Shown piece after piece: positions 1,784 through 8,253 of a stretch of DNA of 64,000 nt (within the stretch, counting starts at the first letter, position 1; each line of letters opens with the position of its first letter). The notes below the pieces were generated by a model, which ran no database searches, was not told where the DNA came from, and saw only the letters and a list, made by a program, of their open reading frames with translations. The position numbers and the translations under genes were made by a program. The stretch is from Nitrospirota bacterium (GTDB lineage: Bacteria > Nitrospirota > Nitrospiria > 2-01-FULL-66-17), in assembly GCA_049325335.1 (NCBI GenBank), contig JBMOMC010000001.1, positions 128,001-192,000 of the forward strand, given 5' to 3'.

Positions 1784-3055
1784 TTAGAACGCGTGGGCGC
1801 CGTGCGCGCCGATCAAAAACTCCCACTGCAAGAACGCCGAGTGCGCGATGTCCTCGCGGCTCTGCACATCGTCCCGGTTGTACTGCACGCGCCATTTGGA
1901 ATACTCGCTGGGGTAGAACGTCAGGTTGGGCGAGACGCGCACCCGGCGCTCGCGCAGCGGATCGGTCACGTCCCCATTCTCACCCACCACGTACTCGCCA
2001 CGAAGGCCAGCCACCCATCGCGGGGTAAATCCCCACGTGACCTGCGTGTAGCCACCCCGGTCCCTGAGCTGTTCCTCCGGAAACGTCCCGTCCGCGGCGT
2101 TCTCGTACTCGCGCCGCATCAGTTCGGTCTGCCACGCCACAAACGGCCAGCCCTTGACGGTCTGCACCGGCTTCCACTTGTAGTACAAATCGATCCCGTA
2201 GATCTGCGTTCGTGCCGACTCCCCGCTGCTGTTGGGTCCGAACGCCCCGGAAACGCCGACGAGCACGGTCTGGGCGTCGCTCGGATTGAACGACGCGGCC
2301 AACCGCGGCGTGATCGCGAGATCGCCGATCCCTTCGACCCGACGCTCGATCAACGTCCGTCCGAAGAGAATCTCATCGGGCGCGTTGCGAAAGCTGAACA
2401 TGGTCTCGCCCTGGCTGTTCTGCAGCGCGATCAAGGCTTCGGCGTACACCGGGAGCGGTAACAGATACGCCACCTGCATGCCCAGTCCCCGCATCCCGTC
2501 GCCACCGAACAGGCGGCCGTTGATCAAGGGCTGATCCACAAACGCCCACGCGTGGGGATGCTGGGGATTGAGGCGACCGAACTGGGTGAAGAACTGCCCG
2601 GCTCGAAGTTGTAGATTCGCGGGCAATGCGGTCGATGTGATGTAGGCTTCTTCGACTTCGAGGAAGCTTTCCCCTTCCCGATCGATGCCGAAGATCAGAT
2701 GACCGATCGCGGCAAAGTACGGGTCCACGTTTCCGGACAGCGTCAGCTCAAGATTTTGGGCCGTGAATCCCCGCTGGTTGGGATCGTGCGCTCCGGTTTG
2801 CAGCGTCTCCAGGTCCGGCGCTGTGGACGCGCCCGCCGCAAATAGACCGTCGAGCGACATATCCGGATTGAACCGCGGGCCTGTGCCCTGTGACGTCGGC
2901 TGTTTGGCTTCCAACGCGCGCACCGCGGCCCGTGTCTCGGCCAATTCACGCTCCACGCGTTCAAGCGCCGTTTCCTCGGCGTGAGCCGCGGCGCCCGATA
3001 CGACGATGATCCCGAACCACGCCATGACGAATCGATGACACCATGCGTGCTGCAT
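1784..3055 (-). CDS. Putative outer-membrane beta-barrel/porin associated with metal uptake
   Basis: Signal peptide, N-terminal coiled coil, FGRLNPQHPHAW motif, C-terminal IGAHGAHAF; GGAGGAG SD before ATG 3055. Confidence 0.75.
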   Translation of the reverse strand: MQHAWCHRFVMAWFGIIVVSGAAAHAEETALERVERELAETRAAVRALEAKQPTSQGTGPRFNPDMSLDGLFAAGASTAPDLETLQTGAHDPNQRGFTAQNLELTLSGNVDPYFAAIGHLIFGIDREGESFLEVEEAYITSTALPANLQLRAGQFFTQFGRLNPQHPHAWAFVDQPLINGRLFGGDGMRGLGMQVAYLLPLPVYAEALIALQNSQGETMFSFRNAPDEILFGRTLIERRVEGIGDLAITPRLAASFNPSDAQTVLVGVSGAFGPNSSGESARTQIYGIDLYYKWKPVQTVKGWPFVAWQTELMRREYENAADGTFPEEQLRDRGGYTQVTWGFTPRWVAGLRGEYVVGENGDVTDPLRERRVRVSPNLTFYPSEYSKWRVQYNRDDVQSREDIAHSAFLQWEFLIGAHGAHAF

Positions 3056-3075
3056 AGCTCCTCCGCACATGGAAT

Positions 3076-3112
3076 CACGCGCATGCGCGGACGTTGTCCG
3101 CGCATGCGCGTG
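3076..3112. repeat. Perfect 17-bp inverted repeat (hairpin) between the leader ORF and the barrel gene
   Basis: CACGCGCATGCGCGGAC-gtt-GTCCGCGCATGCGCGTG, extended by GGAAT/ATTCC; no U-tract. Confidence 0.85.
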
Positions 3113-3143
3113 GCATTCCGATCAGGTTAGGTGGCTGAGTGCG

Positions 3144-3428
3144 TTACTGCGAGGAACGCGGCGGACCGCGGGAGGAGACGACGAGAACCGACGACTCAGA
3201 AACCGCGTCATGACTCGACGGGAGGAACTCGCTGAGGCTGACAAGGGCGGCGAGCGGCGGAGCAGCGGATTCGGTCGCGTTGGCGTGTTGTACCCACGCC
3301 CCGATAAGGCATCCGTGAGGGTCAGTCAGTTCGTCCTGGGCGTATGCGTGCTGAAGGGAGAAGCCTGAAAACAGCGCCAGGTAGAGCGCAAGGCCCCAGA
3401 CCGAGGCGATAGACGTCGCGCGTTTCAT
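3144..3428 (-). CDS. Small leader protein (94 aa), DUF2946/CruR-like, with C-terminal RGPP motif
   Basis: Signal/TM segment MKRATSIASVWGLALYLALFSGFSLQHAYA, then HGC...H, ending SSRGPPRSSQ; lies directly upstream of an OM transporter gene. Confidence 0.75.
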   Translation of the reverse strand: MKRATSIASVWGLALYLALFSGFSLQHAYAQDELTDPHGCLIGAWVQHANATESAAPPLAALVSLSEFLPSSHDAVSESSVLVVSSRGPPRSSQ

Positions 3429-3438
3429 ATCGCCGCAA

Positions 3439-3468
3439 AATCTAACACAACCACGAAATTCGTGCCAA
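3439..3468 (-). promoter_or_regulatory. Putative sigma70 promoter of the RGPP leader
   Basis: TTGGCA-N18-TAGATT with extended -10 TG; -10 ends 10 nt before ATG 3428; 6-1-6 palindrome CACGAA-A-TTCGTG at 3452-3464. Confidence 0.55.
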
Positions 3469-3501
3469 GCATCGGATTGCGCGCCGACAAGGCTCCACCA
3501 G

Positions 3502-8253
<4,752 letters not shown>

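Follow-up and report, generated by a model that had tools for sequence, protein, structure and literature searches.

An open reading frame (ORF) of 94 amino acids (aa), located 88 nt upstream of a gene for an outer-membrane barrel protein, very probably encodes an arrest leader that controls the following operon in cis. In the full model, a ribosome stalled at the RGPP motif near the end of this leader would cover an anti-Shine-Dalgarno (anti-SD) sequence, and a zinc-type importer would be on until a metal, most likely zinc, releases the stall; we hold this model to be just on the probable side. Stalling, the identity of the metal and the direction of the switch are predictions drawn from sequence, modelling and analogy with characterized leaders. 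The coordinates below are those of the window, that is, the whole stretch of 64,000 nucleotides that was analysed. The features of the locus, identified from the sequence itself where no other basis is given, are as follows.

3468-3439, minus strand: sigma-70-like promoter, with TTGGCA at 3468-3463, an interval of 18 nt and TG-TAGATT at 3444-3439
3428-3144, minus strand: leader ORF, 94 aa, with a basic and hydrophobic N-terminus, a candidate ligand segment, a variable spacer, RGPP and four more codons
3428-3354, minus strand: putative N-terminal export segment, residues 1-25, with a predicted helix at 3-30
3350-3285, minus strand: candidate metal-ligand segment H27-x-Y29...E33...D36-x-H38-G-C40-x-x-G43...H48 (alignment)
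3177-3171, minus strand: candidate anti-SD site A, CUCCUCC, extendable over a bulge to 3168 (complementarity, folds)
3170-3159, minus strand: RGPP codons, residues 87-90
3156-3151, minus strand: alternative candidate anti-SD, UUCCUC, codons R91-S93 (several single-sequence folds; inside the footprint)
3130-3116, minus strand: invariant C-rich intergenic block of 15 nt (seven closest loci)
3119-3071, minus strand: intergenic hairpin with a 17-bp perfect inner stem at 3112-3076, closed by GGAAU:AUUCC (folds)
3064-3053, minus strand: barrel SD GGAGGAG (3064-3058) and start codon (3055-3053)
3055-1784, minus strand: outer-membrane barrel gene, 423 aa
1760-837, minus strand: gene for a ZnuA/AztC-type substrate-binding protein (family matches; three conserved His positions)
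840-55, minus strand: gene for an ABC-3 (ZnuB/AztB-type) permease (family match)

The leader gene is genuine and conserved. A search at the protein level yielded 31 matches, the query included, among 35 candidates, and a profile search of 1.84 billion representatives returned 46, 42 of them with E<=1e-10; the leader profile matched 41/401 genomes of the class (five weakly) and 21/401 genomes of the phylum. The leader belongs to a conserved Nitrospirota family; Pfam and NCBIfam gave no family for it, and an Rfam search of positions 2900-3700 gave sub-threshold chance matches only, and hence no known riboswitch. The 34 aligned members have a mean identity of 40%, and H27, Y29, E33, C40, G43, R87, P89 and P90 are invariant in all of them. 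R[GA]PP is present in 34/34, and the Arg and both Pro residues are likewise invariant in the 31 aligned proteins of the first set, so that the RGPP motif described as arrest-like in the preliminary description of this DNA turns out to be part of a conserved leader. The C-terminal end of the ORF reads VVSSRGPPRSSQ on the minus strand. The spacer ahead of the motif varies freely in sequence but is fixed in length, with 60-61 residues from HxY to Arg in 24/24 family loci examined. AlphaFold predicts residues 1-30 as a helix at pLDDT 85-97, with a mean pLDDT of 63.6 and a pTM of 0.35 for the whole chain; this helix is the only confident part, and no metal site can be read from the model. Residues 1-25 may form an export segment, as predicted from sequence and model, being either a signal peptide or an uncleaved anchor. 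Cleavage after HAYA, if it occurs, would place H27 and Y29 inside the signal peptide.

The family comparisons rest on a curated set of loci. Excluded were a duplicate fragment (L037) and a near-duplicate (L105), three loci of the first set without the barrel (L065, L066, L068), five whose downstream genes are absent or truncated (L077, L106, L109, L110, L118), and five profile matches without the RxPP tail (L045, L062, L063, L101, L103); one cluster with a 274-nt spacer was also kept out of the stall-model and synonymous-shuffle sets. Start codons were picked by SD strength and N-terminal appearance, in part by hand, and the p-values given below overstate significance because related genomes are not independent. 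The L103 homologue carries RGTP where others have RGPP. It corresponds to a second leader copy in one genome (from L103:1524 onward in a minus-strand frame), has a longer tail and is possibly a decayed leader. Two further R[AG]PP leaders occur in the same genome as the leader studied here, C2 near 214381 (minus strand) and C6 near 106596 (plus strand); the latter is very His-rich and precedes paralogous genes for a barrel, ZnuA and an ABC ATPase. Distant relatives with the pattern HEHSDQDVCxWLDH...RGPP (L108, L109, L110, L118) occur in another family of the class.

The barrel gene lies downstream at 52/56 leader loci, and at 28/32 of those found by leader queries alone. Of 30 barrel loci, two lack upstream DNA, and 26 of the remaining 28 have an R[AG]PP ORF just upstream, 24 of these ORFs belonging to the HxY/CxxG family and two being His-rich paralogues. 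ZnuA-type genes follow in the neighbours scanned (L100, L112, L113, L117); at L105, the leader precedes a gene for a TonB-dependent receptor instead of the barrel. The closest solved relatives of the binding protein include several named zinc-binding proteins, and MntC also matches; a His at its third ligand position is what we take to be the zinc-type ligand set. The genome has two Fur-family genes, which leaves room for control of the operon by Zur.

Several neighbouring regions deserve mention in their own right. At 13225-10308 (minus strand), a NikR-family gene is followed by genes for an OprB-like porin and for another binding protein of ZnuA type, and an inverted motif GTGTTA...TAACAC upstream of the porin presumably has the form of a NikR box. 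This porin unit probably serves as another uptake unit, controlled by a repressor, next to the leader-controlled one. At 17166-13421 (minus strand) lie genes for an Mrp/ApbC-like ATPase (by eye), a PCP_red repeat protein and a haem-oxygenase-like iron-redox enzyme, and at L008 a C-terminus homologous to part of this cluster is found directly before the leader. At L108, the gene after the leader begins with a P-loop motif, for which we assume a likeness to COG0523/CobW metallochaperones, and an 11-bp helix can form between the leader's end and that gene. At L100 (3919-6894), a lipoprotein-like gene is located between the leader and a divergent barrel gene, again with an 11-bp helix from the leader's end to its ribosome-binding site (RBS). 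Directly before czcC in the window, a small His-rich ORF (10155-9718, minus strand) with a hydrophobic N-terminus ends in LRSHRTTVLLI, without Pro-Pro. It has no Pfam or NCBIfam match, and its position is like that of CzcI as described in the part of bioRxiv 2022.11.11.516240 considered here.

Transcription of the leader is predicted from sequence to start at its own promoter and to yield a leaderless or nearly leaderless mRNA, because the ATG follows the -10 element closely, at 10 nt, and no SD precedes it. Promoter-like sites were found in 43/56 homologous loci against 5.8 expected from shuffles, with an in-frame start 5-12 nt after the -10 element in 32 of the 43 leader loci vs 0/56 at the downstream gene. 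A perfect palindrome in the promoter spacer (3464-3452) was considered as an operator and rejected, as it is not intact in the closest relative, and inspection by eye upstream of 38 homologues revealed no shared operator motif.

The ancestry of the leader bears on its candidate ligands. It is read here, on sequence grounds, as a CxxC-to-CxxG offshoot of leaders of the DUF2946/CruR/CutF kind. Profile comparison of the CxxG and CxxC groups gave a 97.6% match, in which C40 and G43 align with the two cysteines, and weaker matches elsewhere in the phylum carry HxH...CxxC, with the same barrel downstream in 6/8. The distance from CxxG to Arg is 43-45 residues in 47/56 loci, the motif not being parsed in the other nine, and that from CxxC to Arg is 45 residues in 7/8 CxxC relatives, as is the distance from the Cys motif to RAPP reported for CruR in the part of PMC9426467 covered here; with 43 residues, the present leader falls within a CruR-type spacing of 45 plus or minus 2. 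The DUF2946 model (PF11162) matched 0/34 leader members at E<=1, and two of four tested CxxC relatives from the same phylum weakly, below the cut-off, while the nearest named cluster to the leader in the Atlas is 54% DUF2946 (score 0.94). That the leader lacks CxxC, as had been noticed before, is borne out by the presence of CxxG in 34/34 members. The ligands then proposed, QH, HGC and QH, fared unevenly: H27 and C40 are invariant (34/34) and H38 and H48 are each found in 26/34, as is D36 in 29/34, but Q26 occurs in only 2/34, and the list omitted the invariant Y29, E33 and G43. A metal other than copper is plausible, since Gly stands in place of the second Cys and the operon carries cargo of ZnuA type; this type of cargo also makes zinc the likeliest metal.

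How stalling might be relayed to the barrel gene depends on the pairing of its SD. The minus strand reads GCGGAGGAG at 3066-3058, and the 16S-tail-like GGATCACCTCCT occurs in the genome. The preliminary description had placed an anti-SD in the V-S-S-R codons before the motif, and 3177-3168 indeed reads CTCCTCCCGC, that is, the last base of Val84 followed by Ser85, Ser86 and Arg87. The claimed pairing stands as a straight 7-bp complement, CUCCUCC:GGAGGAG, but its extension needs a 1-nt bulge at C3065, past which CGC pairs with GUG 3068-3066, the whole duplex amounting to -16.5 kcal/mol. CTCCTCC occurs 19 times in the window vs 7.9 expected from shuffles, a frequency at which a match inside a given 40-nt footprint is uncommon. 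Among the SD-complementary sites in 3450-3076, site A ranks second at -17.4, the others scoring -19.1 at 3263, -16.3 at 3230 and -15.0 at 3158. Single-sequence folds mostly favour 3156-3151 or a site near 3262, and over five folding windows the ensemble probability was 0.03-0.55 for site A vs 0.01-0.87 for 3156-3151. Site A as the sole anti-SD of this locus was therefore not borne out, since 3156-3151 competes with it.

Comparison with the seven closest loci gives site A a firmer place. The RNAalifold consensus of these loci pairs it with the SD, through CCUCC just before the Arg codon, and a 4-bp hairpin that ties up the Pro codons (3169-3158) is conserved in 7/7. The intergenic hairpin, which places the leader's end next to the SD, is conserved in outline, with 88-98% of cells paired. 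The C-rich block at 3130-3116 is conserved more than the neighbouring codons and is missing from 110/121 loci. The covariation check on the anti-SD helix did not turn out in its favour: four of five pairs are invariant and the remaining one shows a mismatch, with no compensatory change; invariant pairs as those of site A lend no covariation support, and the anti-SD structure does not beat column shuffles.

In the expected stall register, Pro89 (3164-3162) occupies the P site and Pro90 the A site, as for R[AG]PP motifs in the parts of PMC10951233 and PMC12992588 drawn on here. For an assumed footprint size, the stalled ribosome would cover about 3176-3149, which includes most of site A, located 7-13 nt 5' of the expected P-site codon, as well as 3156-3151. 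The earlier idea that the stall frees the SD holds in folds with and without a ribosome for the SD core, whose opening energy falls from 8.6 to 4.2 kcal/mol, but the whole initiation region gains almost nothing (13.1 to 12.2 and 17.8 to 18.1 kcal/mol). With synonymously shuffled codons at this locus, SD opening is 4.3 vs 8.6 for the native free and 4.2 for the stalled state, and of three upstream segments, two come close to or exceed the native end in SD sequestration (10.4 and 7.9 vs 8.6).

Across the family, the modelled stall lowers the SD opening energy in 26/29 clusters when compared with a modelled ribosome at codon -12, the mean falling from 7.0 to 4.9 kcal/mol. Between a ribosome at codon -6 and one at the first Pro, the SD opening energy drops by 2.07 kcal/mol on average, vs 0.0-0.3 for other steps. 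SD sequestration by the native motif-region codons exceeds that of synonymous shuffles in 21/29 clusters and that of upstream segments in 22/29; about half of the modelled effect (0.96/1.87 kcal/mol) arises from the amino-acid sequence alone, and several clusters (e.g., L012, L019, L020, L060) show no modelled effect. Among representatives, the duplex energy with the locus's own RBS has its minimum at the G/A-P-P codons, -9.9 vs about -6 upstream; CCU serves as the first Pro codon in 15/28 vs 3.0 expected from the barrel genes, one of the 28 being a fragment that duplicates another locus. In each of the three footprint windows, pairing is better with the synonymous codons in use (z -2.3 to -5.0); of the three upstream controls, two were flat against the two usage-based nulls, and the nearest one scored too. 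When own and permuted RBSs were compared, a first run gave p=0.14, and the other run 22/30 (p=0.001), with one of three control regions also scoring (p=0.04, 0.01).

The position of the anti-SD moves between lineages. Site A is absent from L002, L003 and L034, of the own lineage and its sister, which have CCUCC at the Pro-Pro codons, whereas the present locus and L031-L033 have no Pro-Pro site and carry the upstream site A. In a second lineage (six loci), a 16-pair consensus helix lays the codons after Pro-Pro over the SD and start codon, and in a third the stop-codon region pairs with the SD and AUG, clearly in 3/5 loci. The consensus folds of three lineages thus all pair the SD with the end of the leader, each at a position of its own, so that site A as a conserved, family-wide anti-SD is not upheld. 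The Pro-Pro codons as a universal anti-SD were also considered and rejected, because CCG CCG stands there in this locus and the pairing of two lineages lies elsewhere. By lineage, the sites lie at the Pro-Pro codons, in later codons or in the stop region, in every case beneath or beside the stalled ribosome. An anti-SD:SD structure opened by stalling is predicted and enriched in models, without covariation; anti-SDs that move about under the ribosome would escape standard position-by-position covariation screens.

The following sequence of events would fit these observations. A ribosome translating the leader would stall at RGPP with Pro89 in the P site, as expected from RAPP/RGPP biochemistry and from CruR, while the N-terminal part of the leader is likely under export. 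Because the spacing is fixed, the stalled chain would put the H27-H48 segment just outside the membrane, at its outer face. Without metal, the stall would persist, the anti-SD would remain covered and the importer would be made, with the SD partially released, by 2-4 kcal/mol; when no ribosome is stalled, the partner of the SD, across the intergenic hairpin, would be 3177-3171 or 3156-3151. Metal-induced folding might pull the chain free and let the ribosome finish the leader, after which the anti-SD would pair again and the barrel, ZnuA and permease genes would be translated less, with Rho polarity probably adding to the effect. A more specific form of this scheme is possible, but we regard it as somewhat doubtful. 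It would be a leaderless nascent-chain zinc sensor derived from CruR by loss of one Cys, with a His/Glu/Cys site at the outer membrane face reading periplasmic zinc, a porin-ZnuA operon switched by translation alone, and an anti-SD re-invented per lineage in the arrest codons and their neighbours. If it were true, a stalled ribosome would govern zinc uptake, in place of a repressor or a riboswitch.

The same arrest leader might instead act through Rho-dependent termination, the mechanism shown for CruR, which had been left aside in the preliminary description. The stalled ribosome would then shield a C-rich Rho loading site, and SD complementarity would be a by-product of pyrimidine richness. 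A C>G bubble extends from about 3420 to 3063 in the transcript (C 0.35-0.42, G 0.22-0.28), in 30 representatives the C-G skew climbs towards the leader's end, from 0.02 to 0.24-0.54 within the last 30 codons, third positions are G-poor near the leader's end, the genome has a rho gene, and the strong intergenic hairpin could serve as a pause site; termination at such a bubble is the CruR mechanism in section 7 of PMC9426467, the part relevant here. However, the G content of the bubble is not very low, and composition alone can hardly account for lineage-specific helices of 11-12 bp to the exact local RBS (L004, L059, L060, L095, L112), nor for the 16-pair consensus of one lineage over the SD and start codon. 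We consider this alternative unlikely, though with a real chance of being right. The two outputs are compatible and act in the same direction, and as both predict that the stall means on, the direction of the switch is independent of which of them is right.

Other alternatives touch the ligand or the very existence of the switch. Metal might prolong the stall and turn the operon on, in the manner of CutF, whose Cu-dependent stall opens an SD hairpin (bioRxiv 2025.02.05.636593 and 2022.11.11.516240, in the parts considered), or the ligand might be Mn, Ni or Co in place of Zn. The gene adjoins czcCBA and the NikR-linked second uptake operon, MntC also matches the binding protein, and His-only CutF-like clusters neighbour Ni/Co genes in the same part of bioRxiv 2022.11.11.516240; nevertheless, the controlled genes encode an importer, whose induction by its own metal makes little sense. 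The best matches of the binding protein are of zinc type. Its third ligand position is His, in what we take to be the zinc-type ligand set, and we judge this alternative improbable. It appears more improbable still that the leader senses export or disulfide status through a SecM-like pulling force, with a merely structural role for His, Glu and Cys. Sec/YidC monitoring is the best-known role of RAPP/RGPP peptides (PMC7897499, as far as covered), one invariant Cys is left and the downstream product is itself exported, but the homology to CxxC/DUF2946-like leaders, the fixed ligand-to-arrest distance and the constant metal-uptake context argue against this. Finally, the ORF might encode a small secreted metal-binding peptide without any regulatory role, RGPP and SD complementarity being incidental: Pro codons start with CC and pair with G-rich SDs anyway, and the transcript has several further SD-complementary sites. 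Since RGPP/RAPP is strongly avoided in proteomes, those of Nitrospirota included (PMC12992588 source data, in part), and RGPP is invariant at the end of an otherwise variable, fixed-length spacer, we give this explanation hardly any weight.

The preferred reading, an RGPP stall that exposes the SD of a zinc-type importer operon, can be set beside what has been published, insofar as the sections of the sources used here describe it. It is already known that RAPP/RGPP uORFs precede metal-homeostasis genes and that stalling is coupled to an SD hairpin in CutF; in several contexts, arrest was most robust with RGPP (PMC12992588). In the source data of that paper, nine RAPP ORFs of 95-132 aa precede roughly 400-aa 'zinc-regulated TonB-dependent' genes, which is also the Atlas name of the barrel's nearest structural cluster; these nine are table rows only, several with CxxC. 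The main text, as covered, makes no mention of zinc, ZnuA, Shine-Dalgarno, stem-loop or leaderless. No member of the HxY/CxxG family was found by five motif strings in the part of the source data considered, the corresponding part of the supplements of PMC9973294 gave no matches, and the literature covered, with few subscription papers and supplementary tables in part, yielded no CxxG family, zinc-sensing arrest leader or footprint-shifting anti-SD.

The closest parallel is CruR (Bp2923) of Bordetella pertussis, whose arrest was shown in PMC12992588, in the sections relevant here. CruR, like the present leader, opens a metal-uptake operon whose second gene is for an outer-membrane transporter, and it has an export signal, as is predicted for the leader, a C-terminal R[AG]PP, a fixed distance from the Cys motif, 45 residues in CruR and 43-44 here, a C>G bubble and a long intergenic region. 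In contrast to CruR, the present leader, of 94 aa, lacks CxxC, its second Cys being Gly in 34/34, and has an invariant HxY and Glu. The cargo is barrel-ZnuA-ABC-3 here and a Cu TonB receptor with PepSY there, the start site of CruR lies 45 nt upstream while a leaderless transcript is predicted here, and the output of CruR is Rho (PMC9426467, in part) in place of the predicted anti-SD.

CutF of Rhodobacter capsulatus is exported, as is predicted for the leader, and is likewise shorter than 150 aa, with Pro-Pro near its C-terminus and a same-strand gene downstream (PMC9973294, in the parts used). The rules of length, Pro-Pro and gene distance for such proteins apply to the present leader, with 94 aa (<150), Pro-Pro at 89-90 (within the last 15 residues) and a same-strand gene at 88 nt (<1000). 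As proposed here, stalling was proposed to open an anti-SD:SD structure (bioRxiv 2022.11.11.516240, in part). CutF has CxxxC and an EF-P-sensitive PPP, stalls with Cu and switches on a detoxifying oxidase, according to the same sections, whereas the present leader has an RGPP motif, an importer as its target and an anti-SD that shifts between lineages within the footprint. The class of the arrest motif and the stall register are shared with SecM and with ApdA, ApdP and ApcA, and SecM also opens an SD hairpin (PMC7897499 and PMC10951233, as far as covered); unlike the leader, these proteins monitor protein export and precede sec or yidC genes, and for ApcA, ApdA and ApdP no SD-sequestering hairpins were predicted in the portion of PMC7897499 considered.

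The two characterized metal-sensing arrest leaders that were found, CruR and CutF, thus both sense copper, via different outputs. Next to them, the present family constitutes a test case for the reach of such leaders to zinc-type import and for SD exposure vs Rho as their output, as it offers a natural ligand swap, from CxxC to CxxG before the same barrel, together with a spacer of fixed length and anti-SD sites that can be mutated synonymously.
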